Source: Escherichia coli
Lineage (GTDB): Bacteria; Pseudomonadota; Gammaproteobacteria; Enterobacterales; Enterobacteriaceae
Length of the DNA stretch: 64,000 nt
NCBI RefSeq assembly: GCF_024298765.1
Contig: NZ_CP101210.1
Reading direction: 5' to 3' (one strand)
Positions 2,654-42,376 of the stretch are shown here, one piece after another. Position numbers and translations under genes: made by a program. Within the stretch, counting starts at the first letter, position 1; the number at the start of each line of letters is the position of its first letter. The notes beneath the pieces are model-generated. The model had not been told where the DNA came from, did not search any database, and was given only the letters and a program-made list of their open reading frames with translations.

Positions 2654-3526
2654 TCAGAAGAAAATCCAGTTCCATACAGCGCGGGCAACAGAGACCACCG
2701 AGTCACGGACGGCACGCAGAACCGTGCGTGCAACAGAGGCAATACAGACGCTCTCCGCCGTGTCAAATATCCGGTCCACCGCACCGGTAAACTGTTCACG
2801 GGCCTGAGACCGGACAGATTCCGTGCGCAGCTCGTCCTGCAGGCGGGTCATCAGGGGACTGGCGGCATGGTCGGGAAGCGCTGTCATGAGCGCACTGACC
2901 AGCGTATCCAGTTCCCAGCCGGTGCAGGCCGATACGGCCACAACCGGATGTACGGGCCGGAACAGCCGGAATACCGCATCTGTTTTCTCACGAATGTTCT
3001 GTGCCTGTGCGGGAGAAGGCTGAATACCGGCCATATCCCATTCATGGCAGGGCTCCGTTTTGTCGGCCTGCGTCACCACAAACAGCACCCGCTGATGTCC
3101 CCGGTGCAGGATGTGTCGCCAGAAATACTCATCCACAGACAGGGCGCGGTCATCGGCTTTAATCAGCCACAGCACCAGGTCCAGTTCGGGCAGAATGTCA
3201 CGGTACAGGGCTTCATACTCTGCATCCCTGTCCCGGCTCTCGCCCACCCCGGGCAGGTCAGTGATAACCATGCTGTGACCGTGGCCACTCAGACGGAAGC
3301 GCCGCACTTCCCGGGTGCCGGCGTGAACATCACTGACCGGGGTGACCTCCCCCTGAAACAGCGCATTACAGAGTGAGGATTTACCGGCCCCGCTTTTACC
3401 CATAATGCCAATCACGGGTTCGTGACTGGTGAGTTTGCGCAGATGTTCCAGGATGTGACGGGAAAGTGAGTAAGGCAGGGAAGAAAGTGGTTTTTCAATT
3501 GCCTCAATGGCATCAGACGGATTCAT
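2654..3526 (-). CDS. yeeP: YeeP/YkfA/YfjP-family GTPase (CP4-type prophage-island protein)
   Basis: ORF 2654..3565; P-loop GIMGKSGAGKSS and DLPGVGE switch motif; position immediately upstream of flu as in CP4-44. Start at the internal MNPSD Met (3526) is my preference; the ORF-track start is 3565. Confidence 0.75.
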   Translation of the reverse strand: MNPSDAIEAIEKPLSSLPYSLSRHILEHLRKLTSHEPVIGIMGKSGAGKSSLCNALFQGEVTPVSDVHAGTREVRRFRLSGHGHSMVITDLPGVGESRDRDAEYEALYRDILPELDLVLWLIKADDRALSVDEYFWRHILHRGHQRVLFVVTQADKTEPCHEWDMAGIQPSPAQAQNIREKTDAVFRLFRPVHPVVAVSACTGWELDTLVSALMTALPDHAASPLMTRLQDELRTESVRSQAREQFTGAVDRIFDTAESVCIASVARTVLRAVRDSVVSVARAVWNWIFF

Positions 3527-3789
3527 ACATGTATTCCCGGTGAAAAAAGACAAAACCCCGCGCACCGGAAAGGTGGCGGGGGATTCACGGAGATAATATC
3601 TGTCTGAAATTATTTAGAATGCACCTGGTGCACTGCAAAGGAAAGGCAATATTCCGTTCCTCCTCCTTGTCGTGAATACCCCAGGTATCTCACAATGTAC
3701 ACCGACTTACTCCGGGGCTGCCTGAACCACAAGATTGCTGTAGAATTGCCCCCAATGATTCAGGTCCAAACCAGGAAAATGGATTAAAA

Positions 3790-5346
3790 ATGACAAGTAT
3801 TCAACAACGAGCAGAACTGCACCGCCAGATATGGCAAATTGCCAATGATGTCAGAGGTTCTGTTGACGGATGGGATTTTAAGCAATACGTTCTGGGCGCG
3901 CTTTTCTACCGTTTTATCAGCGAAAATTTTTCCAGCTATATTGAAGCCGGTGATGACAGTATCTGTTATGCGAAACTGGATGACAGCGTAATTACTGATG
4001 ACATTAAAGACGATGCCATCAAAACTAAAGGCTACTTCATCTACCCCAGTCAGCTTTTCTGCAACGTAGCTGCGAAAGCAAATACCAATGACAGACTGAA
4101 TGCAGATTTAAACAGTATCTTCGTTGCTATCGAAAGTTCTGCTTACGGTTACCCTTCAGAAGCTGACATCAAAGGTTTGTTTGCTGATTTCGATACCACC
4201 AGTAACCGCCTGGGTAACACCGTTAAGGATAAAAATGCCCGCCTGGCTGCGGTTCTGAAAGGGGTTGAAGGGTTAAAACTTGGTGACTTCAACGAACATC
4301 AGATTGACCTGTTCGGCGATGCCTATGAGTTCCTGATTTCTAACTATGCGGCGAATGCTGGTAAGTCAGGCGGCGAGTTTTTTACACCGCAGCACGTCTC
4401 CAGGCTGATTGCACAACTGGCTATGCACGGGCAGACCAGCGTTAACAAAATCTACGACCCGGCAGCAGGTTCCGGTTCGCTGTTGTTGCAGGCTAAAAAA
4501 CAGTTTGATGACCATATCATCGAAGAAGGTTTTTTTGGTCAGGAAATCAACCATACGACCTATAACCTGGCGCGTATGAACATGTTTTTGCACAACATCA
4601 ACTACGACAAGTTTGATATCAAGTTGGGCAATACGCTGACTGAGCCGCACTTCAGAGATGAAAAACCGTTTGATGCCATCGTTTCTAACCCGCCGTATTC
4701 GGTGAAATGGATTGGCAGCGATGACCCGACGCTGATTAACGATGAACGTTTTGCCCCGGCTGGCGTCCTGGCCCCCAAATCCAAAGCTGACTTTGCGTTT
4801 GTACTACATGCGCTGAACTATCTTTCGGCCAAAGGTCGTGCTGCGATTGTCTGCTTCCCGGGTATTTTTTACCGTGGCGGCGCAGAGCAGAAAATCCGTC
4901 AATATCTGGTCGACAATAACTATGTCGAAACCGTGATTTCACTGGCACCGAACCTGTTCTTTGGCACCACCATTGCCGTAAACATTCTGGTGCTGTCTAA
5001 ACATAAAACGGATACCAACGTTCAGTTTATTGACGCCAGCGAACTGTTCAAAAAAGAGACTAACAACAATATCCTGACCGATGCCCATATCGAACAGATT
5101 ATGCAGGTATTTGCCAGCAAGGAAGATGTTGCTCATCTGGCAAAATCTGTCGCGTTCGAAGCCGTTGTCGCGAATGACTATAACCTGTCGGTGAGCAGCT
5201 ATGTGGAAGCGAAAGATAACCGCGAAATTATCAATATTGCTGAACTGAATGCAGAGCTGAAAACCACGGTCAGCAAAATCGACCAGTTGCGTAAAGATAT
5301 TGATGCAATTGTGGCTGAAATTGAAGGCTGCGAGGTGCAGAAATGA
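3790..5346 (+). CDS. hsdM: Type I restriction-modification N6-adenine DNA methyltransferase subunit HsdM (type IC-like)
   Basis: 518 aa; SAM-binding motif DPAAGSGS and catalytic motif SNPPYS; stop overlaps the hsdS start (ATGA). Confidence 0.9.
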
Positions 5347-28509: not shown

Positions 28510-28896
28510 ATGAATAAACCAGCAGATCTGAAACCCCGCAACTTATCGGCTGCTGTCAGATTGCGCCTAAATGAAATCGAGAACTGGCTGGACAGAGGGC
28601 TAACGCGGCATGAAATTGCTGAAATCCTCGACAGCGAATACAGCTTTTCGGTAACAGCCAAAGGGCTTGAGATGGCACTGTATAGAACGCGGCAAAACCG
28701 AAAAAATGTATTGCACAATACACATGATAAGAGTAGCGCGAAGGGTGCAGCGGAAAGTGTATTGCACAATACACAACCGTCTGAGCCTGAAGCGCAGGAA
28801 AGTGAAAAAGCAGAGAGTCCCGGCATTATTGATAAAGAATTCTTCAATAAAATCGGTGAGAATTTCGACCCTAAGAAGTTCAACAAAAAATTCTGA
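28510..28896 (+). CDS. Small putative DNA-binding protein, candidate iteron-binding partition adaptor (StbA/ParR-like); function inferred from context
   Basis: 128 aa; RBS ggaggg 6 nt before the ATG; directly downstream of the iteron array and upstream of a ParA-like gene fragment. Confidence 0.4.
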   Translation: MNKPADLKPRNLSAAVRLRLNEIENWLDRGLTRHEIAEILDSEYSFSVTAKGLEMALYRTRQNRKNVLHNTHDKSSAKGAAESVLHNTQPSEPEAQESEKAESPGIIDKEFFNKIGENFDPKKFNKKF

Positions 28897-28904
28897 GGTG
28901 ATTT

Positions 28905-29091
28905 ATGAAAGTAGCGGTAATTAATTACAGTGGCAGTGTTCGTAAAACCTTAATTTCATCTTACCTGTTAGCTCCGCGCCTGACTGGTGCAAAGTTCTAT
29001 GCGGTAGAGACTATCAACCAGTCTGCTTCCGATCTGGGTATTGAAAATGTGACCAGTTTTAAAGGTGACGACTTCTCACGTTTGATTGAGG
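28905..29091 (+). pseudogene. N-terminal fragment of a ParA/StbB-like ATPase gene, truncated by a solo IS1 end
   Basis: MKVAVINYSGSVRKTLISSYLLAPRL... resembles a deviant Walker-A start; ORF ends at 29096 where the IS1 terminal sequence begins. Confidence 0.4.
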
Positions 29092-29123
29092 GGTAATGAC
29101 TCCAACTTACTGGTAGTGTTTTA
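29092..29123. mobile_element. Solo IS1 terminal-repeat remnant (~32 bp)
   Basis: ggtaatgactccaacttactggtagtgtttta matches the IS1 end (ggtaatgactccaacttattgatagtgtttta) with 2 mismatches, then diverges. Confidence 0.7.
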
Positions 29124-29173
29124 GCGAAGTTAAGTGACACAATAGTTTAATCTGGAGGAATTAATGAAGAGTT

Positions 29174-32113
29174 ATGAGTAATTTTAATTTTCTAACAGAC
29201 ATCAGCCCTGAACTCGCTCAATTTGGTAAAAGTGCCGAGCTGTATTACCATGATGATAAGCAGGTAGCACTAGTGAAACTTAGGTGTTTTACTGAAGTAG
29301 TCGTTGGGGAAATTTATTCACGTTTATCGCTAACCCCACCTGTTCGTGATGATTTATATAATCGACTGCGCAGCTACGAATTCAAGGACGTTGTCAGTGA
29401 TAAGGGAATCTGGGCCAAATTAGATGTATTGCGACATAAAGGTAACAAAGCCGCCCACTCTAGCAATGGTTCAGACGAGATTTCCCTCAATGAAACACTC
29501 TGGTTAATCAAAGAAGCTTATTTAGTCGCCCGTTGGTATGCTCAAGCTATTCTCAATAAGCCTATCACTCCGCCAGAGTTTGTTGATCCGGTAAAACCTA
29601 TCGATCATACATCTCGCTTAGAAGCAGAGTTAGAACGGCAACGTCAAGAACTCAATAAACGAGAGGCTGAATTAAAGACCCAGCTTGCTGATAATAGTGA
29701 TAAATATCAACAACAGACGAGTGAGCTAATAGCTCAACTAGACGAAAAAAACGACACACTTTCCAATGTAAAAAAAGAGCAAGCACTATTACAGATTGAA
29801 CTTGAACAAAAACAAAAAGATCTAGTCGCTTCACAACAAGCCTTCTTTGATTACAGGACGCGTGAAGAGTTTAAACAAGCTAGTATTTCATCAGCTTCAA
29901 GCTTTGATCTTGATATGGAAGTGACGCGCCGAAATATTGATATATTTGATTGCTTTGAAGGAGTAAGTTTAACTAAAGGTCAAAACCAAATAGTTAAGCA
30001 AATAAATGAGTTTCTAACCGATACCAAACAAAACGTATTTTTACTTAATGGTTATGCAGGTACAGGTAAAACATTTATAACTAAAGGAATTACTCAGTAC
30101 CTAGAAAGAATTGGTCGTGAATTCGCTATTATGGCCCCGACGGGGAAAGCCGCGAAAGTGATATCAGACAAAACAATGCAACCTGCCAGCACTATTCACC
30201 GCGTGATATACAATTACGACAACGTGAAAGAGTACAAAGTTGACGGTGTGGAAGGGTCTGAAACTTATCGTTGCTATGCTGACCTTAAAGTCAATGTAGA
30301 TACTGCCGAAGCTGTTTATATAATTGATGAAGCGTCAATGGTTTCTGACAGATATTCCGATGGTGAGTTTTTTCGTTTTGGGAGCGGATATTTATTAAAA
30401 GACTTGCTCAAGTACATAAATATTGACCACAACGATCATAATAAGAAAGTTATTTTTATTGGTGATAATGCACAGTTGCCACCTGTTGGAATGAATACGT
30501 CACCAGCGCTAGATGCCAGTTACCTTAAAGAAAATTATCAAGTCGCTGTGGCTTCAGGGCACTTGACTGAAGTTGTTCGTCAAAAAGGTGATAGTGGTGT
30601 TTTGAACAATGCTGCCATGTTGCGTGACGGTTTAGAGCAAAATCTTTTCAATAAACTGAAATTTGAAGTTAATGATCATGATGTATTTAATTTGTCCTCG
30701 GAAAATCTACTTAGCACTTATCTAGACTCATGTGATAGAAAAGTTAGCCGTACAGGAGAAAGTATTATTATTGCTTCTTCAAACCGACAAGTAGCTGAGT
30801 ATAACCGTTTGGTTAGAGAGTACTTCTTTACTGGTCAACAGCAAATGGTCGCGGGAGATAAAGTCATTTCGGTAGCAAATCACTATCGAGCAGACGCTTG
30901 TATTACCAATGGTGAATTTGGAATGATCAAGGAAGTACTATCTCCTCATTCTGAGTTGATTAGTGTTGACATTAGCGTCAAAGGTGACACTGGTGACATG
31001 GTTAAGCGAAAAGTAAATCTGAGTTTTAGGGATGTGATTCTAGGCTTTCGCAACGACTACGGTGAACCATTCTTCTTTGAAGCCAAAATTGTAGAAAACC
31101 TACTTTACAATGATCAGCCGACCTTATCGTCAGATGAGCACAAAGCACTCTATGTTCACTTTTTAAATCGACACCCAGAACTGAGACGTAAAGGTAATGA
31201 ACAAAAGCTTAGAATTGCATTATTGCAAGATCCTTATTTCAATGCTTTTAAACTTAAGTTTGGTTATTCCATTACTGGACACAAAGCACAGGGTAGCGAA
31301 TGGAAAACTGTTTTCTTACAGTGTCAAACACACCAAAAAGCCTTAACTAAAGATTACTTCCGCTGGTTATACACCGCTATAACGAGAACTTCTGGCATCC
31401 TGTATGTAATGAATCCACCTCAGTTGCGCTTAGGAGATGGAATGAAAATAGCAGGAGCGTACCAACCCAAAGCAGTAAACCTAGACAATTCTGCTCCTGA
31501 AGGCGTTGAGGTTGTGCGACCAAGTACCGAAGCAACGAACTCAGTAGCCACAGCGAAGTTTGATTTTCAGACTGACATCCCGCAACTTAAAAAGCTATAC
31601 CAACTTGTTGATGCATGTATTGAAGGTACAGGGATTACTGTAGTGGATGTCCTTCATTATAACTATCAAGATCGTTACATCTTGCAGCGCGGGAATGAGC
31701 AGGCTTCGATAAGTTTCAATTACAAGGGTAACTGGAAAGTGTCTGGCGTAAAGAGCATTACTCAAGATGGGTTCGATGTTGAACTCATGGCTTTGCTTGG
31801 TCAATTAGAAGGTACTTTGCTCGATGTACCTGAGCCTTCAAAGGATACTCAGTTCCATTTTTCAGAGCCATTCTTAGAAGAGTTTTATCTAAATGTAATG
31901 GATCAAATCAACAGTGTTGGAGCTGATATAAGCAAAATTGAATCTCGTTCATTTTGTGAAAGATATGCATTTGTTAAAGGCAATGAGTTGGCGGTAATTG
32001 AGTTTTGGTACAACAAGTCTAGCCAGTTTACTAAAGTTCAACCTATGCCTCAGCTTAGTAATTCCACAAGGCTCATTGACGAAATAATATGTCAAATAGG
32101 TGTGCTTCTATGA
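29174..32113 (+). CDS. Large SF1B (RecD/Pif1/Dda-like) helicase with an uncharacterised N-terminal helical domain and a coiled-coil linker; candidate defence effector/sensor
   Basis: 979 aa. Helicase motifs: Walker A NGYAGTGKTF, IMAPTGKAAKV, Walker B IIDEASMV, motif III VIFIGDNAQLPPV, motif V/VI SITGHKAQGSEWKTVFL. N-terminal ~130 aa contains LDVLRHKGNKAAHS (possible DUF4145/HEPN-like R-x7-H); residues ~140-230 are a heptad-rich E/Q/K/L segment. No relaxase motifs. Confidence 0.75.
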   Translation: MSNFNFLTDISPELAQFGKSAELYYHDDKQVALVKLRCFTEVVVGEIYSRLSLTPPVRDDLYNRLRSYEFKDVVSDKGIWAKLDVLRHKGNKAAHSSNGSDEISLNETLWLIKEAYLVARWYAQAILNKPITPPEFVDPVKPIDHTSRLEAELERQRQELNKREAELKTQLADNSDKYQQQTSELIAQLDEKNDTLSNVKKEQALLQIELEQKQKDLVASQQAFFDYRTREEFKQASISSASSFDLDMEVTRRNIDIFDCFEGVSLTKGQNQIVKQINEFLTDTKQNVFLLNGYAGTGKTFITKGITQYLERIGREFAIMAPTGKAAKVISDKTMQPASTIHRVIYNYDNVKEYKVDGVEGSETYRCYADLKVNVDTAEAVYIIDEASMVSDRYSDGEFFRFGSGYLLKDLLKYINIDHNDHNKKVIFIGDNAQLPPVGMNTSPALDASYLKENYQVAVASGHLTEVVRQKGDSGVLNNAAMLRDGLEQNLFNKLKFEVNDHDVFNLSSENLLSTYLDSCDRKVSRTGESIIIASSNRQVAEYNRLVREYFFTGQQQMVAGDKVISVANHYRADACITNGEFGMIKEVLSPHSELISVDISVKGDTGDMVKRKVNLSFRDVILGFRNDYGEPFFFEAKIVENLLYNDQPTLSSDEHKALYVHFLNRHPELRRKGNEQKLRIALLQDPYFNAFKLKFGYSITGHKAQGSEWKTVFLQCQTHQKALTKDYFRWLYTAITRTSGILYVMNPPQLRLGDGMKIAGAYQPKAVNLDNSAPEGVEVVRPSTEATNSVATAKFDFQTDIPQLKKLYQLVDACIEGTGITVVDVLHYNYQDRYILQRGNEQASISFNYKGNWKVSGVKSITQDGFDVELMALLGQLEGTLLDVPEPSKDTQFHFSEPFLEEFYLNVMDQINSVGADISKIESRSFCERYAFVKGNELAVIEFWYNKSSQFTKVQPMPQLSNSTRLIDEIICQIGVLL

Positions 32114-33534
32114 ATGAGCCAGCTAATCGTACAGTAAATAATTTGAGAAAGAGCGGAGACCTGCAAGGGGCTTGGGAGTTTGGTTTTCAAGCGTTGCAGG
32201 CAGCTCCCCAAGATACTTACTTGAAAGGTGCTTTATTTTGGGTGTGTTATGAGTTTCTTAAGCACCAGCTTGAAAATCTAAATAAGCGAGCGAGTTCTTC
32301 AAACAACTATCGTCCTACTGATTTTGAATTTGAGCAAATAGAGAACTTGCTGCAAACCATAGTAAATTTAGATATTGCTACTGGCGGCCTAGAGTACAAA
32401 ATGCTGCTGGTTCAGTTTAAGAAGAGTTTGGAATGGTTTCCAACCTTGATTCACCTTGTGCTTCGACATCAAACTGTACTATTTGATGATGAGGCTAAAA
32501 CACCTTTTCAAGCTGAAAAAGGTGAAGTGCCAAGTTTGATGCTCTCAACAGCACGCCAAGTGGCGAGTGCATGGCTTAGAGCACGAGAGTATTGGCATCT
32601 AGATCTTAACCAAGTGATGGCATTTATTAACCAAACACGCGAGCAAGCCTCTGACACTAAACATATGATGTGGCTTGATTACGACCAAGCGAAGTGCCTT
32701 GTTGTTGCGGGCCAATACGATCAGGCTCGCGAACTCATTCTACCCATTTTAAGAAAGAAGCAAAAAGAGTCTTGGGCTTGGGGAGCGTTGGCTGCTACTT
32801 ATTCAAAACAAGATCAGCGTTTAGCAATGAAGTTTTTTGCTAGGGGAATAGTATCCGCACATGACGTTACTTTTAGTTTACGTTTATTACAGGGAATTAT
32901 TCCTTTATTACTTGCAAATCAACAGCAAGCTGAAGCCTCAATGTGCCTAAAAACGGCTATTGCGGCTTATCAAGCCCATGGGTGGAAGCTAAAGCAAGAG
33001 CTAGAACAGCTATCTATGCAGGCTTGGTATGATTCTGGTGTCGATGAGAAGCAACTGAGTCCTTTTTTAAACTCTATTTCTCACGACGCTTTAAATTACT
33101 TGCATGGGCCGATGGAGAAGGTTGTTGCTATCGTAGAGAATATCCATAAATCCGGTAAAGGCTTTCAAGTATTCGTAAATAAGTCGACATCACTATCAGT
33201 TCGCATGGGGGTTCATAAAGGTAAGCAGAAACCTCAGGCTGGTGACTATGTCGAGCTATCCGTAGCGAGTGTTGATGGAAACAAAGAAGTAGTAGCTTCC
33301 TCATCGTCCAAGCAAGTAGATATGGCTGATGTTTCGTATGTAGAGGGTACGCTTCGAATAGCACCCAAAGGCTTCGGATTTGTCGAGGATACTTTTGTTC
33401 CTCCCTTTGTTATAGGTAATTTAAAAAATGAAACAAAAGTCAGAGCACTCCGTATCATGAGTTGGGACAAATCTAAAGCTCGCCACAACTGGAAAGCGAT
33501 TAAGTTAACGGAACTAAATTTTAATGAAGACTAA
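32110..33534 (+). CDS. Uncharacterised protein with N-terminal TPR-like helical repeats and C-terminal cold-shock/OB-fold-like region, translationally coupled to the helicase
   Basis: Start at MNEPANRT (ATG 32110, overlapping the helicase stop; ORF-track start 32089 rejected); C-terminal ...GTLRIAPKGFGFVEDTFVPPFVI resembles the GFGF cold-shock/S1 motif. Confidence 0.65.
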   Translation: MNEPANRTVNNLRKSGDLQGAWEFGFQALQAAPQDTYLKGALFWVCYEFLKHQLENLNKRASSSNNYRPTDFEFEQIENLLQTIVNLDIATGGLEYKMLLVQFKKSLEWFPTLIHLVLRHQTVLFDDEAKTPFQAEKGEVPSLMLSTARQVASAWLRAREYWHLDLNQVMAFINQTREQASDTKHMMWLDYDQAKCLVVAGQYDQARELILPILRKKQKESWAWGALAATYSKQDQRLAMKFFARGIVSAHDVTFSLRLLQGIIPLLLANQQQAEASMCLKTAIAAYQAHGWKLKQELEQLSMQAWYDSGVDEKQLSPFLNSISHDALNYLHGPMEKVVAIVENIHKSGKGFQVFVNKSTSLSVRMGVHKGKQKPQAGDYVELSVASVDGNKEVVASSSSKQVDMADVSYVEGTLRIAPKGFGFVEDTFVPPFVIGNLKNETKVRALRIMSWDKSKARHNWKAIKLTELNFNED

Positions 33535-33591
33535 GTCACTTTCCGGCGAAATCGAGTTAGGACAGGCTCAAGAATTAGCCGAGGTCGAATA

Positions 33592-33688
33592 ATGGCAACC
33601 CGAGTAGAAATGATTATCGAAACGCTCAAGGCGAACCCCGACAAGAAGTTTACTGCTCGGGACTTAGCCAAAGAATTTGTGCTTCGAT
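33592..33688 (+). pseudogene. First 32 codons of a third gene (winged-helix / HARE-HTH or Mrr-N-like N-terminus), truncated by the IS903-like element
   Basis: RBS gagg 7 nt before ATG 33592; MATRVEMIIETLKANPDKKFTARDLAKEFVLR then the frame enters the IS terminal repeat at 33689. Confidence 0.45.
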
Positions 33689-34745
33689 GGCTTTGTTGAA
33701 TAAATCGAACTTTTGCTGAGTTGAAGGATCAGATCACGCATCTTCCCGACAACGCAGACCGTTCCGTGGCAAAGCAAAAGTTCAAAATCACCAACTGGCC
33801 CACCTACAATAAAGCCCTCATCAACCGTGGCTCCATAACTTTCTGGCTGGATGATGAAGCTATTCAGGCCTGGTATGAGTCAGCAACACCTTCTTCACGA
33901 GGCAGACCTCAGCGCTATTCTGACCTTGCCATCACGACTGTGCTGGTCATTAAACGCGTATTCAGGCTGACCCTGCGCGCTGCGCAGGGCTTTATTGATT
34001 CCATTTTTTCTCTGATGAACGTTCCGCTACGCTGCCCGGATTACAGCTGTGTCAGCAGGCGGGCAAAGTCGGTTAATGTCAGTTTCAAAACGCCCACCCG
34101 GGGTGAAATCGCACATCTGGTGATTGATTCCACCGGGCTGAAGGTCTTCGGTGAAGGCGAGTGGAAAGTCAAAAAGCATGGCCAGGAACGCCGCCGTATC
34201 TGGCGTAAGCTGCATCTCGCCGTTGACAGTAAAACACATGAAATCATCTGTGCAGACCTGTCGCTGAACAACGTTACGGACTCAGAGGCCTTCCCCGGGT
34301 TAATCCGGCAAACCCACCGGAAAATCAGGTCAGCCGCCGCCGATGGCGCTTACGATACCCGGCTATGTCACGATGAACTGCGGCGTAAGAAAATCAGCGC
34401 GCTTATCCCTCCCCGAAAAGGTGCGGGTTACTGGCCCGGTGAATATGCAGACCGTAACCGTGCAGTGGCTAATCAGCGAATGACCGGGAGTAATGCGCGG
34501 TGGAAATGGACAACAGATTACAACCGTCGCTCGATAGCGGAAACGGCGATGTACCGGGTAAAACAGCTGTTCGGGGGGGCACTGACGCTGCGTGACTACG
34601 ATGGTCAGGTTGCGGAGGCTATGGCCCTGGTACGAGCGCTGAACAAAATGACGAAAGCAGGTATACCTGAAAGCGTGCGTATTGCCTGAAAACACAACCC
34701 GCTACGGGGGAGACTTACCCGAAATCTGATTTATTCAACAAAGCC
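33689..34745 (+). mobile_element. IS903/IS102-like element (IS5 family), ~1057 bp
   Basis: Inverted ends ggctttgttgaataaatcg (33689-) and the reverse complement ...gatttattcaacaaagcc (-34745); single transposase ORF; flanking 9-mers tgcttcgat / gttgccaaa do not match. Confidence 0.85.
33766..34689 (+). CDS. IS903-family transposase
   Basis: ORF 33721..34689 (322 aa from the track start); 307 aa if started at GTG 33766, the size I recall for IS903 transposase. Confidence 0.8.
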   Translation: MAKQKFKITNWPTYNKALINRGSITFWLDDEAIQAWYESATPSSRGRPQRYSDLAITTVLVIKRVFRLTLRAAQGFIDSIFSLMNVPLRCPDYSCVSRRAKSVNVSFKTPTRGEIAHLVIDSTGLKVFGEGEWKVKKHGQERRRIWRKLHLAVDSKTHEIICADLSLNNVTDSEAFPGLIRQTHRKIRSAAADGAYDTRLCHDELRRKKISALIPPRKGAGYWPGEYADRNRAVANQRMTGSNARWKWTTDYNRRSIAETAMYRVKQLFGGALTLRDYDGQVAEAMALVRALNKMTKAGIPESVRIA

Positions 34746-35282
34746 GTTGCCAAACCTGAAATAACACTTAGCTGTGATGATTCGCTATTACCTACCGATG
34801 GCTTCGGAAAACATAAATTAAAAATGCCCAGAGGAGTACTATTATCGTTAGCATTACCCGAACGCCGTATTAACGGTTATTTATTGGTAAGAGCTACGTT
34901 CCATGGCAAGAGTTCATCAACAGGTTGGAAGGCCATTCCGGCAAAACTCTCAGTATATGGCGCAGATACCATTCAGACAGCAGGTCCCGCTCAGCCCGTA
35001 CAGTAGAGCGCCGTTCACTACCGTAATCGCTACCGAAGAACACATTGATTGCCCCTCAATAATCCTGCTGTTAACATCAAAATTGTTGGTCGGGCTCGAT
35101 TTATTTAATTGTGTAAACAGGGTCTCTCAGAGAAAGGCCCTTATGCATCACCTGACGTTAAAAGTCACTACACCCAAGATGACGTTCAAAGTGTCATAGT
35201 CCCCTGCGCTGAGGACAAAGCCACACGTTAACGACAAATCCACGCGATAACTTACGATAGTTCGGACATAAGCCCCCATAAT

Positions 35283-35846
35283 TCAGTTATGTCGTGGTCG
35301 GCCGCGGTTACTTTTTTCGGGAAGCCTGCTACGGCCCAGAATAATACCGTGTTCTTTCTGATCTTGTTTAGCCAGATAGCTAAGGGCGTAACGTAAGTCG
35401 TCTACCGCAGACTTATCACTATAGTGAATCACGTGATCGATACGCACCGGGTATTTATCTTTAGCCCGGCACAGGTGAAAATAACCCTCCCCTTCCGTGA
35501 TCCGCCTCCAGATATCCCCCAGTTGCCTGGATATCTGATAAGAGTTCTTGTGACGTTGCCCATCCAGATAGCCGATAAAATGAATATGAAGCCCTTTGTC
35601 TGGTGTATATTCCATAACCCAGTAATATCCTGCCAACATCGTCTGGGTTTCGCTAAGTAAACGGTATATTTCCATACACATACTGTGCTTACAGGAATGC
35701 CCGAAACTGGGCGTGTCTTTCCTGTAGGCAAAATCAATTCTGAAAGGTAACAGTTTAGAAAAACGTTGAAACAATCCCTCCATGTGTTCATTCACATCTT
35801 TCAGAATCGCGAAATTCATTTCGTAATTGGGATTGGCATTATACAT
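35283..35846 (-). CDS. YagK/YfjJ-family protein (CP4-type island conserved gene)
   Basis: 187-aa ORF; family assignment from memory of CP4-57/CP4-6 gene content and its position next to the yfjI-like and alpA-like genes. Confidence 0.45.
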   Translation of the reverse strand: MYNANPNYEMNFAILKDVNEHMEGLFQRFSKLLPFRIDFAYRKDTPSFGHSCKHSMCMEIYRLLSETQTMLAGYYWVMEYTPDKGLHIHFIGYLDGQRHKNSYQISRQLGDIWRRITEGEGYFHLCRAKDKYPVRIDHVIHYSDKSAVDDLRYALSYLAKQDQKEHGIILGRSRLPEKSNRGRPRHN

Positions 35847-36735
35847 TTTATAGTCCTTACTTTATAAAATTCACAGGAAGAGGGAATTACGTAAATACTG
35901 AGAGTACATAAACGCCGTACCACGGCATTAATAAACGAGGTAACCAGCAGTACAGACAACCTGATAAAACTGTTTTGTATTACCGCATCGCTGTAACAAG
36001 GTAATACTTCAGAATTCAGTGAGGCTCTCTTAAACAGAGGACCAGTAATAATTACAATGGCAAAAACACACCTCAATATAATTGAATTTAAGAAAGCACC
36101 ATTCAATCACTTACAGGAAGTAATCTGATCTTCACAAAAGTCAGCTATCGAATAGCCACAGGCAACACCGCTATTGATACCCCACACACCATAAGAAGAT
36201 TATTCCATACAGAAAAAATTATATTTACCCATACTTATAAACTGTAACGGAGCTATGACGTACGAACTAAAGACACTACACTCTAATAGAGTTCTGGTAC
36301 CTAACCAGTGTTAAATACGAACCAGACATACATTCTATGGATTAATTTTCTCAATATTACGCTATGAGTGTAGTAACATAATTTACACCACATACACCAC
36401 CACACTGTAGTTAGTATATGGGGAGACATTACGATAAAAAGAGATAAGTTATACCACAGATACCACCACACAATACCATAACTCCCATTAATAATACTAA
36501 TTAACCTAAATTATTTATTGAATACGAAAACAATGAAGGTCCCACCTCACCTCAGACTAAAGCCGACAATATCCTGAGCAACACTCTATCCAATAGTAAA
36601 TAGTGGTTACACCAGTTATATTTACTGACTGACCTGTACCAGAGTTTTCTAATACAACAACGCTGACATGGTAAAGGCATTAGTCTCCTCCGCAAGTAGC
36701 AGAGGAGACTATATGTTACTCAACGATTAAGTCGT

Positions 36736-38187
36736 TCAGAGGTCAAAGTTAGGTGCGACACACAACGTTTTTCCCTCAATAACCGGTACAACTCTGTTTT
36801 GTTCATACAGTAAATCCAGTAACCAGTTGATTTTATCCTTTTTCCGGAAACGGTTCGGACCACGCTGTAAAATATCATTTTTTTTCATACAGGGGATCCC
36901 CTTCTCAATGCAATAGCTTTTTATCCAGTTGAAAAGTTCAAGCTCCTCTGGAATGAGTCGCACAGGTACGGTCAGGGCAGGGTTGTCAAAAGTTAACGGA
37001 TTAGACAACCGCACATACTCATTACCGTACCATATTGCTAATTCTCTCGCCATTTCTGCAGTGTAAGGGGAAATGTCCCCCTCTTCACCGCTCGAATGGT
37101 GAATAAGTCCTGCCAGTCTTGCCATATACTCTGCATTTTTAGCAGCATATTCCCGGCAATGTCTTAAAGGCCCCAATCCCCCCAGCTTCGATTCCACATC
37201 GTTGTAATAATCCGTCCAGATTCTGGCAGCCTGAGGAGAAAAGTGAAGGCAACGTCGTTCACCACTCATCGCCAGATTTTCATCAATAAGCTCATTGATC
37301 CTCTGTTCAAACAAATCCTGATACTGTGATGAATAATTATCTCCGGTTATTATCCTTGTCCCCTGCGTTGATGTTGGTTGACACATCAAAAACCTTGCAT
37401 GATGTCCTGACGTTTTCACAAGTTCTTTTTTTCGCGTACAAAAACCTTTCTGGTAAACATCAGGCTGAATCATCACCGATACCGTCAGTCTTGGATCCTT
37501 CAAAATAATTCCGGGAGATGATTTCCTGTCGATGAAAAGAGAACCACCATCCCACAAAGAGTTAAGTATTCCAAGTTTACTCATTGCCCGGCCATCAAAA
37601 ATTATTCCTCCTTCACTGGATACAAGAGCAAAAGAGCGATTGCTGTCGGAATAATATTTTAACATTCCCTCTATCGTTGTCTCATTGAAAATTGTCCGGC
37701 GTATCTGCGGCGGAACAGGACATTTATTCAGATGTCTTTTAAGCTCTGACTCTGTTGCCTTACAATCTTTACCGGCGCGAATTTCTTTATGCAATTTTGA
37801 CTCCAGTGCTTTTTGCTTTTGCTCCCATATTTCCTTTTCTGTACTGTAATTCTCAACCAGTTTCGCGTATTCTTCCGCCAGGGCTTCATCCCTGAGATAA
37901 AATGCTTTCATAAACACTTTATCCACGGTCGTTTTCCTTTCACCGGAATCAGCCAGAATCAGAGAGTAAAGATTAACAGGCCCACGTAAATTTCCAGGTC
38001 TGCACACGTCAATCTGATTCTGACAGGCACTTGAGAACGCTGTTAATGCGGATGTCGCCACCATAGCCAAAGGTGCCTGTGTATTTTTTTGAGTTTCAAT
38101 TATTGCATTTCTCACCAGCGGTGGTAGTGCATATACCGGATAAGGATTTTCTGGTGCAAGTAAGCACATAAAAGCCTCTCTTTTCAT
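36736..38187 (-). CDS. YfjI-like protein (DUF3987 family), CP4/P4-type island conserved gene
   Basis: 483-aa ORF (alternative start at MCLLAPENPYP, 38169); synteny alpA-yfjI-yfjJ on the same strand as the tRNA, as in CP4-57. Confidence 0.5.
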   Translation of the reverse strand: MKREAFMCLLAPENPYPVYALPPLVRNAIIETQKNTQAPLAMVATSALTAFSSACQNQIDVCRPGNLRGPVNLYSLILADSGERKTTVDKVFMKAFYLRDEALAEEYAKLVENYSTEKEIWEQKQKALESKLHKEIRAGKDCKATESELKRHLNKCPVPPQIRRTIFNETTIEGMLKYYSDSNRSFALVSSEGGIIFDGRAMSKLGILNSLWDGGSLFIDRKSSPGIILKDPRLTVSVMIQPDVYQKGFCTRKKELVKTSGHHARFLMCQPTSTQGTRIITGDNYSSQYQDLFEQRINELIDENLAMSGERRCLHFSPQAARIWTDYYNDVESKLGGLGPLRHCREYAAKNAEYMARLAGLIHHSSGEEGDISPYTAEMARELAIWYGNEYVRLSNPLTFDNPALTVPVRLIPEELELFNWIKSYCIEKGIPCMKKNDILQRGPNRFRKKDKINWLLDLLYEQNRVVPVIEGKTLCVAPNFDL

Positions 38188-38399
38188 TAATGGGTTAGTA
38201 AAGCAGCAGCAACTCCCGCTATAATAGCGAAATAGCTGCTGTTCAGACCTAATGTTCTGAGAAATACAGAATATCTGTAGATCTGATGTTTAATAAACCG
38301 ATAAGGTTAATTCAGTTCATACTGTGTTATTTACCACGAAATATCATTCATGTTTCTCATTCTTAACACCTCCTAAAATTATTTCACTAACACCTTCCC

Positions 38400-38645
38400 C
38401 CCGGTCTTTTTCCTTTCTCAGGAATCAGCCAGAACCATAGTGTAAATATTAACAGGCCCACGTAAATTTCCAGGTCTGCACACGTCAATCTGATTCTGAC
38501 AGGCAATTGACATCGCTGTTAATAATGATGTGGTAGTCATAGCCAGAGATGCTTTTTCATTGTGTTGAGTTTCAATTATTGCATTTCCAGTCATTGATGG
38601 TTGCGCATATACTGGATACGGAGTATCCGGTTTGATGTAAGACAT
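38400..38645 (-). pseudogene. Diverged partial duplicate of the 5' end of the yfjI-like gene
   Basis: 38400-38645 is ~85-90% identical to 37935-38187, including a 57-bp identical core; 75-aa ORF MSYIKPDTPYPVYAQPSMTGNAIIETQ... parallels the yfjI-like N-terminus then diverges. Confidence 0.6.
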
Positions 38646-38750
38646 AAATATTTCCTTTTTTCGTAATAACTTTCGGTTATAGCAGCTATTTCCGCTACAA
38701 TAGCAACAATAGCTGCTATACAGACTGGATATACTGAAAATACAGACAGT

Positions 38751-38999
38751 TCATCTGGTCTGTATCCAGCAAAGAAGGTCACTTAACAACCATCCGCAAG
38801 ATTTCTTTCCGATAGACTTACGTGGTGGAAATTTTCCCTCCCGTTCAAGTTTCCACGCTTGTGTACGAGAAATTGACGTGATCTCATATCGTTCCTTTTC
38901 ACGTACCAGTCTGTCGCATTCAATCCCATAAGCTTTCAAAATGACCAGACGCTGTTCATCTGTTAATGGAAGCCACATACTACCCTCCTGATATATCAA
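38751..38999 (-). CDS. alpA: AlpA-family phage/island transcriptional regulator (MerR-like HTH)
   Basis: 82-aa ORF; C-terminal ...ITSISRTQAWKLEREGKFPPRKSIGKKSCGWLLSDLLCWI matches the AlpA pattern. Confidence 0.6.
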   Translation of the reverse strand: MIYQEGSMWLPLTDEQRLVILKAYGIECDRLVREKERYEITSISRTQAWKLEREGKFPPRKSIGKKSCGWLLSDLLCWIQTR

Positions 39000-39669
39000 T
39001 ACTTTTTATTTCCGGCATGAGCATGAAATGACTAAGTTTCCCGGATAAACAATGAGTGAAAGTCACTATCATTCATCCAGTCAACGCCTTGCAAATAAAA
39101 TGTAATACTATGATTTTTATAGGTCAAAATACTAAATTACAATGTTAAAATGGCTTTTAACAGAAAAAATAAAGACATATGGAACCAAATAAAAACAAGC
39201 CACGACCAATAAAAACAAAAGATTAATATTAAAAATCCATTATGACGATTTTTGTTGACTAAAATTAGGTTGGGATATATAAATAAATCCATGTAAAATT
39301 CAAACAAGGCATAGAGGAGCCGCAGGAAGGTGAAATATTTCCATCTAATTTGTGATAATCATCACAAAAATAAGCTACAACAAGCGGAGGAAAAGACAAT
39401 CTGTTGCTGAACAGACAGAAGCAGGCTACGAATGATCGGAAAATGAAGCAAATACGCTTATACAGAAGACGCAGAGGTAACTGACGGAGACAATCACAAT
39501 CAGGAGAAAATTATCGTAAATAATGTATAAAATCTCAGGATATAAACAAATGTACACAAGCTATCCACGTAATCAGCGGCTGGCTCAGGATTGACGTTTC
39601 ATTTCAGTGGACAACATCGATTCTGTCTGACAGCGGACCAATATGTAGCAAGCAGAAACTTCTGACATC

Positions 39670-41307
39670 ATGGTAACTCGGACAATGCAACAAAAGTATC
39701 AGTATGATCGTGTTTTATCCGGCGAACTCCACCCATTCCCTGGCATATACGAGGCGGTTTCCGAACAAATCCTTTTGCTCATTTTTAAAGCACGTCAACT
39801 ATATCAGGATCCAGAATATCGCCCCTGGTTTGAAGAACAGCACAGAGTACTCTCTGCATTACGTGCCAATACAGAGCTCCTGAGAATCTTTAGAGAACAA
39901 AGAAGCGCTGAAGAACCAAAGCTTACTATTGAAGAGTCTACCTCCCCCCAACCCACTCCTTCTGCTCTTACAGATGCGCTTAATGTGATGTGCCATTTAT
40001 ACAATGGTTTTGATGAAGGAAATATCAGTCTGAAAACCTGGGGGGCGATGCAAGAGGTACAGACAACATCAACCTTTATCAGCCCAGGACCGAGAACCTG
40101 GAAAACACCTGAACTGGCAAAGTTTGTAGGAGATGATTTATTTAATATTCTGACTGAATGTAAGGCCTGGAGTTCACCAATTCCAGCAGAAACCCGACAG
40201 GGGTATTGCCATCAGGATCTGTCTGTTGCACACTCCTGCACCTCAGAGTTACTGGCACACCTGAATCAATATCATGAAATTGATGAATCAGCAATACTTG
40301 CCAGAGTTATTGGTATAACAGTTAACGGATTCTACAAGAAAAATAATACAGACCTTCCAGAATGGCTATCCCCCTTTAAAGAGGAACATAAAATATTCAA
40401 AGATTGTCCGGAGCAAAATACCGGGGATGTAATCAGACGGAAAGAACAACTGTTGAAAACAGGACGTACAGAATTCGTGAATAATTTGTGTCGGGTCGCC
40501 AACTGGTATGAAATTGAGTCAATATACGATGAATACGTCCGTCTTTATGCCAATGAAATCATTGACTGGTTCAACAAAACCATGAAGTATTTTAAACCAA
40601 CAGATTTTATCCGATATACATGGAAATTCGCAACAGTTACTCCGGATAAAGATACAGAAACCGGGCATACAACTGCATGGGAAAAGGATTATTGCCAGAT
40701 AACCATACAACGTGATGAACTTCTGAGGTTGATTCACACTAATACCCTTCAGGATGCTGTAATTTATCTTTGTCATTGTCTGCAGGAGAAATACAAGAAA
40801 TCATCCCAGAATGAGACAGAGTTTCCAGGAATAAAACCTCCGGCATCAGAGAGTGAAATTAATATAACAGATAATTTTGAATTTCATTCTCTTCTGGAGC
40901 TAAGTAAAGATAATGAGAAGCGGCTGGAAACATTTCAAAAATGGTATGAAAAAAATAAAGTTTTGTTAGAAAGTCATAAACAAAAACGAACAGAGAAGAT
41001 TGACGTTGCCGTACGACTTGTAGGGCTGAAAGCCTATGATCTGCATGAAGGGATTCCGGATAGTCCAAAACGAAAAGTTAAAGATGGCATAAATGAAGAC
41101 ATCAAAGCCGATACCAGTTTACGCCTGTCAAAGACAAATATAAGTGATACGTCGCTAAACCGTTATCGCCGCACTGTTAAGGAGATTATCAATAACGAAA
41201 TCGACGCATTCCTGTTGGAACAGAAGAAAAAAAATAAAAGATTTCCCTACAGTGAAGATAGAGATGTGATTCGCCCTTTATGGGGAAAATGCCTGACCGG
41301 GCAGTAG
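39670..41307 (+). CDS. Hypothetical protein, 545 aa, no recognisable domain; AT-rich island cargo
   Basis: Long ORF after a ~670-bp AT-rich, purine-skewed upstream region; no motifs recognised. Confidence 0.5.
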   Translation: MVTRTMQQKYQYDRVLSGELHPFPGIYEAVSEQILLLIFKARQLYQDPEYRPWFEEQHRVLSALRANTELLRIFREQRSAEEPKLTIEESTSPQPTPSALTDALNVMCHLYNGFDEGNISLKTWGAMQEVQTTSTFISPGPRTWKTPELAKFVGDDLFNILTECKAWSSPIPAETRQGYCHQDLSVAHSCTSELLAHLNQYHEIDESAILARVIGITVNGFYKKNNTDLPEWLSPFKEEHKIFKDCPEQNTGDVIRRKEQLLKTGRTEFVNNLCRVANWYEIESIYDEYVRLYANEIIDWFNKTMKYFKPTDFIRYTWKFATVTPDKDTETGHTTAWEKDYCQITIQRDELLRLIHTNTLQDAVIYLCHCLQEKYKKSSQNETEFPGIKPPASESEINITDNFEFHSLLELSKDNEKRLETFQKWYEKNKVLLESHKQKRTEKIDVAVRLVGLKAYDLHEGIPDSPKRKVKDGINEDIKADTSLRLSKTNISDTSLNRYRRTVKEIINNEIDAFLLEQKKKNKRFPYSEDRDVIRPLWGKCLTGQ

Positions 41308-41393: not shown

Positions 41394-41990
41394 TTATGCG
41401 GCTTTTCCATTAACAGATTCGGCCACAAGAACAACACCGTGTTTGTTTCGATCAGGATGTTCACTCCAGATTTCTGATTCAGGAATACTTTCCCCATCAT
41501 AGCAGATCCGATCACCATCAAACGAATAATACCGTGCGGAATCTGTATCTAAGATAAACACCTTAAAATTCGTTGAACGACGCGCTATATGCTGCCAGAG
41601 GGCTTTACCTCCTTCATATTGCTCGTTATCACTTAATAGTATAACGCCTGCTTTTGTGGCTATTGTTTCATAAACAAACGTAGCAAGGCTAACATCACGT
41701 ACAGCGCCATCGACAACAATCCCTTCAATCTGAGCAACGTCCTGTTCTTCCCAGAATTTCCGGACAAACACCCCTTCAAGCTGTGAACGACGCTGAAGCT
41801 CCAGAGTGGCAACAACCTTATGGCGAATATCACCATCAATAACAGAAGGTGCAGCTTCGATTACCGCAGCGAACGGAGTCTTTGGATCCCAGATGATCTG
41901 GTAAAGCACACCCTGAATAGTTACTCCATCCAGTATCGAAAAACGACGAGCTACAGTAGCAGGGGAGTAAGACATTGGAATGACAGCCAT
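41394..41990 (-). CDS. Hypothetical protein, 198 aa, no recognisable domain; occupies the tRNA-proximal slot where an integrase is expected
   Basis: ORF ~310 bp from the thrW 3' end; no tyrosine-recombinase motifs. Confidence 0.45.
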   Translation of the reverse strand: MAVIPMSYSPATVARRFSILDGVTIQGVLYQIIWDPKTPFAAVIEAAPSVIDGDIRHKVVATLELQRRSQLEGVFVRKFWEEQDVAQIEGIVVDGAVRDVSLATFVYETIATKAGVILLSDNEQYEGGKALWQHIARRSTNFKVFILDTDSARYYSFDGDRICYDGESIPESEIWSEHPDRNKHGVVLVAESVNGKAA

Positions 41991-42300
41991 TTTATGGCCT
42001 AAAATTTGAAAACATCAGTATCAATACTGACCTCATCAGTCTGAGCATATATTGATAAAGTTTTTATGTTTACACTCAATAAATACCTTGCCAAACAACT
42101 AATAGCGATGTCTACATTGCCATTCGACATGCTTACAATTTTTGTCAACAAGAAAGTGAATTTATATCAACGGTAAGAAGTAAACACGAGGACACCAAAA
42201 CCAAATGTACACACTTTTGTGCTTTGTGTCCCCTGTGTGTACCCAAATGACAAACTGCAAGAAAATCTAGGCACACACTTATCTAACTTATTGATTTAAA

Positions 42301-42376
42301 TGGTGCCGATAATAGGAGTCGAACCTACGACCTTCGCATTACGAATGCGCTGCTCTACCAACTGAGCTATATCGGC
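42301..42376 (-). tRNA. thrW: tRNA-Thr (anticodon CGU)
   Basis: Reverse complement gccgatatagctcagttggtagagcagcgcattcgtaatgcgaaggtcgtaggttcgactcctattatcggcacca: cloverleaf with anticodon loop attCGTaat, T-loop ggttcgactcc, encoded CCA. Confidence 0.95.

Follow-up and report, generated by a model that had tools for sequence, protein, structure and literature searches.

The window, the whole 64,000-nucleotide stretch of Escherichia coli DNA that was analyzed (contig NZ_CP101210.1), contains an island at the tRNA-Thr gene thrW (42301-42376). In this island, an alpA-family regulator, an intact yfjI-like gene, and a yfjJ-like gene form an alpA-yfjI-yfjJ module, and a truncated copy of the yfjI-like 5' end (the stub) lies between alpA and the intact gene (Table 1). 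The window is 100% identical to NZ_CP019271.1, in which PGAP places a "YfjI family protein" CDS at the matching coordinates. The intact protein matches Pfam PF13148 (DUF3987) over the full length of the profile (positions 1-363 of 364, 288 bits, E = 1.5e-85), and the yfjJ-like gene has weak Pfam matches to YagK_YfjJ_C and REP_ORF2-G2P, under the curated cut-offs. The island carries AlpA (PF05930) and DUF3987, but no integrase lies beside the tRNA; one is located ~41 kb away (49-1368), on the strand opposite to the tRNA-Thr gene. The backbones of these islands are strongly mosaic, with alternating patches of 85-100% identity.

Table 1. Features of the alpA-yfjI-yfjJ region, in window coordinates.
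Feature	Coordinates	Strand	Basis and remarks
yfjJ-like gene (inovirus Gp2-type), downstream of yfjI	35283-35846	minus	PGAP; completes the alpA-yfjI-yfjJ module
Intact yfjI-like gene (copy A), 477 aa, DUF3987	36736-38169	minus	ORF; PGAP "YfjI family protein"; Pfam
Repeat unit A	37898-38270	minus	5' leader and start of the intact gene, to about codon 91; repeat finding, alignment, self-BLAST
Palindrome/hairpin, leader A	38204-38241	minus	Same element as in leader B, duplicated with the unit; fold -30.8 kcal/mol, z = -2.8
Spacer between stub and leader A, 103 nt	38271-38373	minus	Unrelated to either unit
Conserved 47-nt element within the spacer	38327-38373	minus	GGAGG Shine-Dalgarno and 9-codon ORF MRNMNDISW* (38331-38360)
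Repeat unit B (stub)	38374-38746	minus	Diverged leader and ~91 codons; repeat finding, alignment, self-BLAST
Stub ORF, 75 codons (pseudogene)	38418-38645	minus	ORF; PGAP; Pfam
Identical core, 58 nt	38448-38505	minus	Equals 37972-38029 in the intact gene; longest identical run
Palindrome/hairpin, leader B	38679-38719	minus	Inverted repeat; fold -29.6 kcal/mol, z = -3.75
alpA-family regulator, directly upstream of the stub	38751-38978	minus	Pfam PF05930, E = 1.3e-13; PGAP CDS

The yfjI-like 5' end is directly repeated

The two units form a direct repeat, both reading on the minus strand and starting 476 nt apart, and align with 77.9% identity over 380 columns (self-BLAST, E = 1e-61). Each unit of ~373 nt comprises ~100 nt of 5' leader followed by coding sequence to about codon 91, beyond the stub stop codon, and the 75-codon ORF of copy B aligns start-to-start with the PGAP yfjI start at 38169. 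Homology in unit B starts right behind the alpA stop codon (TCTGTATTT, 38738-38746), and its last matching stretch is GTGAAATAATTTT (38375-38387). A direct repeat upstream of the yfjI-like gene had been described in a first-pass annotation and is present where it was placed, but its dimensions required revision: the repeat is longer than the ~250 bp given, identity across the first 75 codons is 80.0%, and the best 250-nt window reaches 82%, short of the 85-90% stated, and the identical core, a run length reached by 0 of 5000 permutations, is 58 nt and not 57 bp.

Both leaders contain the palindrome CGCTATTATAGCG, whose core, CGCTATT(A/G)TAGCG, also occurs upstream of yfjI in a single-copy relative of the island, in K-12 CP4-57, and in Yersinia and Citrobacter homologues. 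The stub-specific leader with the first 60 nt of the ORF reads ATAACCGAAAGTTATTACGAAAAAAGGAAATATTTATGTCTTACATCAAACCGGATAC. An Rfam scan of the region returned no credible family; the sole match, an miRNA family on the hairpin, was dismissed as chance. Scans for sigma-70 promoters and intrinsic terminators gave counts equal to the shuffled expectation.

The stub is a decaying pseudogene

The stub stop codon falls at the position of the Gly in ADSGERKTT of the intact gene, and the stub aligns only to profile positions 2-45 of 364 in PF13148 (35 bits), so judged by its sequence it is a fragment of the DUF3987 family and not a functional member. In orthologous stubs the disabling changes differ by lineage and comprise other stop codons, deletions of 10 nt and 12 nt, and a 1-nt insertion; their ORF is disrupted at codon 15 or through frameshifts. 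Divergence is 13-19% among stubs and 3-10% among their linked genes, with dN/dS of 0.9-1.5 in stub-vs-stub comparisons and 0.5-0.65 between genes. Truncation, lineage-specific disabling mutations, and lost purifying selection identify the stub as a pseudogene in neutral decay, in agreement with the description of the upstream copy as a decaying relic in the first-pass annotation. RefSeq already flags it in this way: the PGAP entry BWI88_RS03920 in NZ_CP019271.1, one of the partial DUF3987 pseudogenes annotated between alpA and yfjI, is the identical feature and is labeled [quoted passage not shown]. The stub is an ordinary recombination scar and not a new system. The RefSeq/PGAP annotation is silent on its origin, spread, common junction, and exchange with the intact gene.

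A spacer found only at the stub-gene junction

Local alignments with shuffled controls revealed nothing significant between the spacer and alpA (three types), yfjI from codon 93 onward, or the rest of yfjI; nor did a 22-of-33-nt match anchored on the alpA 3' end reach significance. In blastn searches of E. coli genomes, the spacer was found only at the stub-gene junction (1337 genomes, median one place each), and plasmid records contained it only in the same stub-spacer-gene context. The gene-proximal part of the spacer is more conserved than the stub. The 47-nt element there has only three variable sites across three deep lineages, while its flanks vary at ~25-30% of columns, and all three variants (AAC/AAT, TAA/TGA, and one site between the Shine-Dalgarno sequence and the ATG) keep the predicted ORF.

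The junction is widespread and shared

A query spanning the junction (38262-38385) was searched against 5426 complete E. coli genomes. The stub-spacer-gene junction was found in 1337 of them, about a quarter, at a median of one place each and in at least three deep lineages, and the truncated units all share one breakpoint. The recombination proposed in the first-pass annotation is therefore not an event of this genome.

A one-unit form, near-identical at the site, occurs in 64 genomes. This single-copy variant of STEC (e.g., NZ_CP074942.1 and O121/O145/O103/O111 genomes) shares with the window the backbone of int, two hypothetical genes, alpA, yfjI, and Gp2, with 95% identity between its yfjI and copy A. 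Unlike in the window, alpA is followed by a 95-nt leader and then yfjI, with no stub and no spacer, and the integrase is in place. About 10 nt present in both leaders A and B are missing from the single-copy relative, which is why a simple stub-gene recombinant was rejected as an account of this form; it may either never have carried the duplication or have arisen by contraction of the array. When the window was compared with the single-copy island, the yfjI/Gp2 side was 92-95% identical and the stub/alpA side 81-88%. This step at the joint appeared clean at first but was dropped as a decisive argument after sliding-window analysis, because the whole backbone is mosaic (identity elsewhere ranges from 58% to 99%) and the step is not unique.

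Exchange between the repeat units

Four stubs (P0002, P0004, P0013, and P0015) are hybrids, gene-type at the 5' end and stub-type at the 3' end. The number of units across genomes is 1, 2, or 3, with a three-unit array in L021, and identical inter-unit runs of 102 and 108 nt occur in L019 and L021, lengths reached by 0 of 5000 permutations. Mosaic patches are seen in both directions and are few in number. The closest relative of the window's stub, in L013 (97.8% identical), differs from it at six sites, four of them inside the 58-nt core, and at two to three of these four the window's stub has the copy-A state. From these site patterns, the core is a conserved motif region (CQNQIDVCRPGNLRGPVN) overlaid by a probable short and recent A-to-B conversion patch, and it is no evidence of origin. 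The stub of L019 and the second unit of L021 are gene-like at the 5' end, which could be taken to show how a local duplicate first looked.

Uneven divergence between stub and gene

Identity between the stub and gene consensus sequences is 55% in the 3' part of the leader, 63% in codons 1-20, 79% in codons 21-46, 97% in the core, and 81% in codons 67-92. This stub-vs-gene divergence is heterogeneous (chi2 = 33.6, p = 2.9e-6), whereas stub-vs-stub divergence is homogeneous (p = 0.34). The edges of homology are also unequal, with stub-gene divergence of 37-45% at the 5' edge and 19% at the 3' edge (p = 0.006), and divergence peaks where the CP4-57 allele departs most from copy A, namely in the 3' part of the leader and the first 20 codons. 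Gene conversion alone can produce heterogeneous divergence, which counts against reading the stub as a diverged allele.

A simple tandem duplication predicts head-to-tail homologous filler and even divergence. The 103-nt spacer does not significantly resemble either flank of the unit, and the divergence is uneven between stub and gene but even among stubs; the view in the first-pass annotation that no recent tandem duplication occurred is thus upheld. With the core included, amino acid differences in the stub fall preferentially outside the residues that copy A and K-12 have conserved (p = 0.02); the tendency is not significant when the core is left out (p = 0.16). Stub-vs-gene dN/dS is intermediate (0.55-0.77), and the codon-position spectrum of stub-gene differences has no significant skew in any class; neither measure discriminates between the models, given that constraint on the N-terminus is weak in intact genes as well.

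Searches for a donor allele

No full-length stub-type gene was found in the 5426 complete E. coli genomes (blastn), on plasmids (tblastn), in 5.8 billion proteins (word-indexed search, which returned only fragments of 45-111 aa), in 1.84 billion representatives (HMMER, with best full-length matches 42-50% identical), or among GTDB species representatives, where two homologues of 36% identity, in Yersinia and Citrobacter, were the only ones; these searches were bounded by the word index, the 50% identity clustering, and the use of one genome per species. As no such gene was found in the collections searched, the second lineage of the stub cannot be named and its donor is hypothetical. The nearest full-length relative of the stub is the adjacent gene type (77.9-79.4% identity).

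The first-pass annotation had suggested recombination between two CP4-type elements, to be checked by aligning both copies to yfjI homologues from CP4-57/CP4-6-type islands. That alignment gave 33 of 75 and 39 of 75 residues identical between K-12 CP4-57 yfjI and the two copies, with dS saturated. Because the copies are about equidistant from CP4-57 and the closest full-length relative of the stub is the adjacent gene type, the locus is not a CP4-57 x CP4-6 hybrid. As a guide to lineage, the alignment is confounded, because conversion and unequal crossover give segments different histories.

Discussion

With moderate confidence, we regard the stub as a non-functional 5' remnant of a diverged yfjI allele, left at an old illegitimate recombination joint. 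An inter-allelic origin from two islands is most likely, as are the following direction and mechanism of the founding event. An island with a diverged yfjI allele, bearing its own leader and an MSYIKPD... N-terminus, would have been joined to a second, related island at the leader and gene of the latter, for example through a deletion spanning two tandemly integrated elements. The regulator upstream, alpA, would have survived the fusion, with 103 nt of filler DNA left at the joint. It would have been a single and ancient event, after which the array, by inheritance and spread, reached about a quarter of E. coli genomes. The stub has subsequently drifted neutrally while the two direct repeats recombined with each other, short gene-conversion patches passing in both directions between stub and gene, and unequal crossovers have generated hybrid units and shifted the unit number among 1, 2, and 3. 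The first-pass annotation had likewise proposed a relic of a second, related island gene joined by recombination; the spacer and the heterogeneous divergence lean toward this, and no full-length donor was found in the collections searched.

A local duplication within one island is a possible but clearly less probable origin. The leader and ~91 codons would have been copied beside the gene with capture of filler, followed by decay, conversion, and inter-island recombination. This scenario is consistent with the two copies being mutually closest among full-length-comparable relatives, with the lack of a donor allele in the databases searched, and with the similar distance of both copies from CP4-57 yfjI; the array also expands and contracts by unequal crossover, stubs with a gene-type leader and 5' end exist (89.7% identical to its gene in L019, 87.7% for unit 2 of L021), and the ~10 nt common to leaders A and B are missing from the single-copy relative. 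It sits poorly with a spacer that lacks the homology to the unit flanks which tandem duplication predicts, and with strongly unequal divergence at the two edges despite even decay among stubs. The very different leader and N-terminus common to all three deep stub lineages, and a conserved PYPVYA motif that differs from the gene at synonymous sites only, also argue against it.

Functional readings are much less credible than either origin. It is very unlikely that the 5' units are a copy-number-variable silent-cassette array feeding the DUF3987 N-terminal region by conversion, with the Shine-Dalgarno sequence and 9-codon ORF of the spacer recruited as a yfjI translational leader. A shade less probable still is a maintained stub, acting either as a 75-residue peptide that modulates YfjI/AlpA or as a silent donor cassette that diversifies the YfjI N-terminal part by gene conversion. 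In the window the ORF remains open over 75 codons, the array is kept in 1337 genomes, and the gene-proximal spacer is more conserved than the stub; moreover, stub-like patches occur within intact genes (AATATTTAC / CTATGATT in copy A of L013 and L019, and CCCGTTAATATT in the single-copy gene) and alter residues, e.g., L66I. Against a maintained function, the ORF is disrupted in other lineages, stub-vs-stub dN/dS is ~1, the single-copy form has an intact gene without any stub, linkage alone accounts for retention, and the conversion patches are few and run both ways. A silent-cassette system of the pilS/pilE kind would entail recurrent transfer, predominantly one-way, from silent copies to the expressed gene, with selection on the variants produced; the only patches seen are mosaic and bidirectional. 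Chance similarity or an assembly artefact can be discarded, because a self-BLAST E value of 1e-61 over 380 columns places the repeat far beyond chance and the arrangement recurs identically in complete genomes that many laboratories have produced on many platforms.

The cryptic prophage CP4-57 of K-12 resembles the window's island in its alpA-yfjI-yfjJ order, AlpA-family regulator, DUF3987 protein, and palindrome upstream of yfjI. It differs in being located at ssrA rather than thrW and in having a single yfjI 129 nt past alpA with no stub; its yfjI, with ~73% DNA identity over 132 nt, is remote from both copies in the window. Fragments beside an intact gene are also known from rhs/cdi orphans, which result from recombination with a related allele and are still homologous enough to recombine. 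The rhs/cdi orphans comprise 3' toxin/immunity modules capable of reactivation, whereas the window has a 5' stub without sign of reuse as a functional module. The core gene set of the island is common to int-alpA-primase (DUF3987) phage satellites such as PICMI (PMC10803314). Satellite loci with two or three alpA copies have been ascribed to multiple integration, gene loss, and inter-satellite recombination (PMC10803314), and by analogy the history of the window would be of this kind. The window's island differs in that it duplicates a gene stub and not alpA and has no integrase beside its tRNA.

Several records call ORFs of 49-87 residues at this site as proteins, and annotators should avoid such calls. 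Sequence exchange continues between a short direct repeat and the functional island gene beside it, and the repeat varies from one to three units; lineage-assignment phylogenies based on such segments are unreliable as a result. As a scar of island mosaicism, the stub is of small overall significance; it marks one old joint that about a quarter of complete E. coli genomes have in common and is therefore usable as a lineage marker for this island family.

Setting and Extent of the Repeat

The genomic island extends from thrW toward lower coordinates (table), and positions 36700-39100 are 100% identical in NZ_CP019271.1 (strain 13P460A). Its further content comprises IS elements and cargo including helicase and TPR genes, lactate-utilisation genes, type I R-M, Ag43, CbtA/YeeU, and others. 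The ATP-dependent DNA helicase and TPR protein genes are flanked by IS1 and IS903 copies directly downstream of the yfjJ-like gene; in related islands this position is occupied by a group II intron or by the primase-domain gene of a "TOTE conflict system", and it resembles a variable slot for cargo or defence genes. No integrase gene was found beside thrW in this island, where the 198-aa gene and the tRNA are separated by 310 nt (41991-42300), whereas the single-copy relative (an island variant with one yfjI unit, e.g., NZ_CP074942.1) carries one there. At the opposite end of the island region is a tyrosine recombinase gene.

The first-pass annotation described a diverged duplicate of the yfjI 5′ end (~250 bp, ~85-90% identity). 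The duplicate is real: self-BLAST of the alpA-yfjI interval gave a single off-diagonal match (380 columns, 77.9% identity, E = 1e-61), and a repeat search paired 37898-38191 with 38374-38667 at 476 nt spacing, with a second colinear block farther upstream. The unit starts directly 3′ of the alpA stop codon with TCTGTATTT (38738-38746, and again at 38262-38270), holds a leader of ~100 nt with a long palindrome, and continues for ~91 codons to GTGAAATAATTTT in the upstream copy (the stub) and ATGAAAGCATTTT in the intact gene (copy A). The first 75 codons of stub and gene are 80.0% identical, the best 250-nt window reaches 82%, and the longest stretch without a mismatch spans 58 nt (37972-38029 = 38448-38505). 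The length had therefore been underestimated and the identity overestimated.

Coordinates of the island features and of comparison loci (L handles) from other genomes
Feature	Position	Strand	Remark
tRNA-Thr (thrW)	42301-42376		adjoins proA
198-aa hypothetical gene	41394-41990	-
545-aa hypothetical gene	39670-41307	+
alpA	38751-38978	-	Pfam Phage_AlpA
Stub	38418-38645	-
Palindrome, leader B (stub)	38679-38719	-
Palindrome, leader A (yfjI)	38204-38241	-
Spacer	38271-38373		103 nt
Conserved spacer element	38327-38373	-	first 47 nt of spacer; strong GGAGG Shine-Dalgarno
9-codon ORF	38331-38360	-	MRNMNDISW*; in spacer's first 47 nt
yfjI	36736-38169	-	DUF3987
Gp2/YfjJ-like gene	35283-35846	-
Helicase and TPR genes	28796-35043
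Tyrosine recombinase gene	49-1368	+
Palindrome, other loci	L002 3915-3934; L010 and L011 2933-2952
Stub called as protein	L003 3005-3154; L004 3012-3209; L005 3491-3688; L018 1026-1142
98-aa HTH/AlpA-family gene	L004 3436-3732		O157-type
L019 array	2177-4408		GCA_002229815.1
L021 array	1350-4151		GCA_005393225.1, BGCD01000093.1
Unit-number variation, further locus	L007 3740-3960

The Stub as a Shared Remnant

The stub is already annotated in RefSeq, where PGAP labels it [quoted passage not shown]. Copy A covers positions 1-363 of the 364 in the Pfam DUF3987 profile; the stub covers positions 2-45 only, stopping at the glycine codon of ADSGERKTT. The joint is not peculiar to this genome but ancient and shared: a 124-nt junction probe (stub end, spacer, leader A start) matched 1337 of 5426 complete E. 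coli genomes, at a median of one place each, and the 2.4-kb alpA-stub-spacer-yfjI interval was covered to at least 80% in 1290. Three deep lineages were sampled (window/L013; L003/L012/L015/L016; and O157-type L004/L005/L014/L017/L018). All of them share one breakpoint and one spacer, and sequences group by type, at 81-87% identity among stubs and 87-97% among genes. The defects differ by stub lineage (a stop at codon 15, TAA or TGA; a single-nucleotide insertion; deletions of 10 and 12 nt), and over the same 75 codons dN/dS is 0.9-1.5 between stubs and 0.5-0.65 between genes. Collectively, the common breakpoint and spacer, the lineage-specific defects, and the dN/dS values indicate an old remnant of single origin that is decaying neutrally, in keeping with the relic status first proposed. 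Unlike these loci, CP4-57 of K-12 lacks the stub and has an alpA-yfjI gap of 129 nt.

The stub most likely has no role as a gene: it can yield no DUF3987 protein, and its ORF lacks conservation across lineages. Promoter and terminator scans gave counts at shuffle level, and an Rfam search found nothing. The demonstrated effect of the stub is to offer yfjI, a gene whose function is still listed as unknown (PMC6174562), a homologous partner for conversion and unequal crossover; it would also add 476 nt to the alpA-yfjI interval and duplicate the conserved leader palindrome. Annotation of the stub varies between genomes: instead of a pseudogene, many public records, database proteins P0001-P0031 among them, give the broken stub as a genuine protein (39-111 residues), named either "DUF3987 domain-containing protein" or "hypothetical protein".

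In the O157-type loci, the stub is preceded not by the 75-aa AlpA but by another HTH/AlpA-family gene (98 aa) and an IS1 remnant. Similarity to the window stops 34 nt short of the alpA stop codon in the window, and the alpA-leader boundary is therefore a recurrent recombination point.

Leader Palindrome and Spacer ORF

The palindrome lies ~45-85 nt upstream of every yfjI start and was duplicated together with the stub. Its core is CGCTATT(A/G)TAGCG in the window, TTCCGCCATTAATAGCGGAA in K-12 CP4-57, and TTCCACTATTAATAGCGGAA in Yersinia rohdei and a Citrobacter, whose YfjI N-termini are 36% identical to the stub. The RNA fold is stable (z = -2.8 to -3.75), with no match among Rfam families. Within the alpA-yfjI module the palindrome probably serves as a cis element such as an operator. 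The conserved spacer element has 3 variable sites over the three deep lineages, and its flanks vary at ~25-30% of columns. All 3 (AAC/AAT, TAA/TGA, and one between Shine-Dalgarno and ATG) keep the 9-codon ORF, and in L021 the spacer copy near the gene is conserved and the distal copy decayed. This putative ORF may be a leader ORF or a chance occurrence.

Exchange between Repeats and Copy Number

Strains carry one (64 complete genomes), two (1337 genomes), or three (L021) yfjI 5′ units. Unequal crossover between stub and gene predicts hybrids whose 5′ end is of gene type and whose 3′ end is of stub type, with a spacer behind them, and the hybrid units fit. Public proteins P0004, P0009, P0013, and P0015 switch from gene type at the start to stub type at the end; P0002 has a gene-type middle between stub-type ends. 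The L019 stub has a leader of single-copy type and a gene-type 5′ half (89.7% identity to its own gene, with a 102-nt identical run). In L021 a stub-type unit and its spacer, both decayed, precede a hybrid unit with a standard spacer and then the gene, with a 108-nt identical run between units 2 and 3. Stub-like patches also occur within intact genes (copy A of L013 and L019; the single-copy gene), and island backbones are mosaic between lineages, 85% blocks alternating with 99-100% blocks.

Such exchange accounts for the identical core. Four of the six sites at which the window stub differs from its closest relative, the L013 stub (97.8% identical), fall in the core, and at two to three of these the window stub has the copy-A state; the 58-nt core thus combines a conserved motif region (CQNQIDVCRPGNLRGPVN, which K-12 also retains in part) with a probable short conversion patch in the A-to-B direction.

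The single-copy form is essentially identical at the site in its 64 genomes, mostly STEC, with the backbone int, hyp, hyp, alpA, yfjI, Gp2 and a yfjI 95% identical to copy A. Its leader is contiguous with alpA at the 5′ end, copy-A-like at the 3′ end, and without ~10 nt common to leaders A and B. This form may descend from ancestors that always lacked the stub, or may be the product of a recent array contraction.

Origin of the Stub

The first-pass annotation viewed the stub as a relic at a recombination joint of two islands, and on balance we favor an inter-allelic joint, although the donor lineage was not found in the collections searched. Identity between stub and gene consensus sequences was compared by segment and is heterogeneous (chi2 = 33.6, p = 2.9e-6): 88% in the palindrome, 55% in the rest of the leader, and 63%, 79%, 97%, and 81% in codons 1-20, 21-46, 47-66 (the core), and 67-92. 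Identities between stubs, in contrast, are even (78-90%, p = 0.34). The homology is also unequal between its 5′ and 3′ edges (p = 0.006), which are the parts least open to conversion, and divergence peaks in the leader and N-terminus, where the CP4-57 allele is also most unlike copy A. Fixed stub/gene differences in the conserved PYPVYA motif are all synonymous, and amino-acid changes in the stub tend to spare residues common to copy A and K-12, with p = 0.02 when the core is included and p = 0.16 when it is left out. This pattern looks like that of two once-functional alleles, not even decay of one copy.

Local duplication with filler DNA is a possible but doubtful origin, to which the uneven divergence is also opposed. 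After head-to-tail duplication the spacer should resemble a flank of the unit, yet its local alignments to three types of alpA and to yfjI (codons 93-140 and, separately, the remainder) were no better than shuffles, and it was not found outside this junction in E. coli genomes or plasmid records. In favor of duplication, no full-length gene combining the leader and N-terminus of the stub turned up in complete E. coli genomes, two protein collections, GTDB species representatives, or plasmids, the closest full-length relative of the stub is the adjacent gene type (78-79% identity), and both copies are about equally distant from CP4-57 yfjI. Stub-gene dN/dS (0.55-0.77) and codon-position spectra do not discriminate between the origins. 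On these distances, the joint is not a CP4-57 x CP4-6 hybrid. The check first proposed, alignment of both copies to homologues, cannot work cleanly because the repeats exchange sequence.

The observation is therefore confirmed with corrected numbers and its original interpretation supported in part, with low interest overall. In int-alpA-DUF3987 satellites, loci with duplicated alpA have been ascribed to multiple integration, loss, and recombination (PMC10803314). The history of the stub, which comprises one old joint, its spread, sequence exchange with yfjI, and variation in copy number, is routine island mosaicism.
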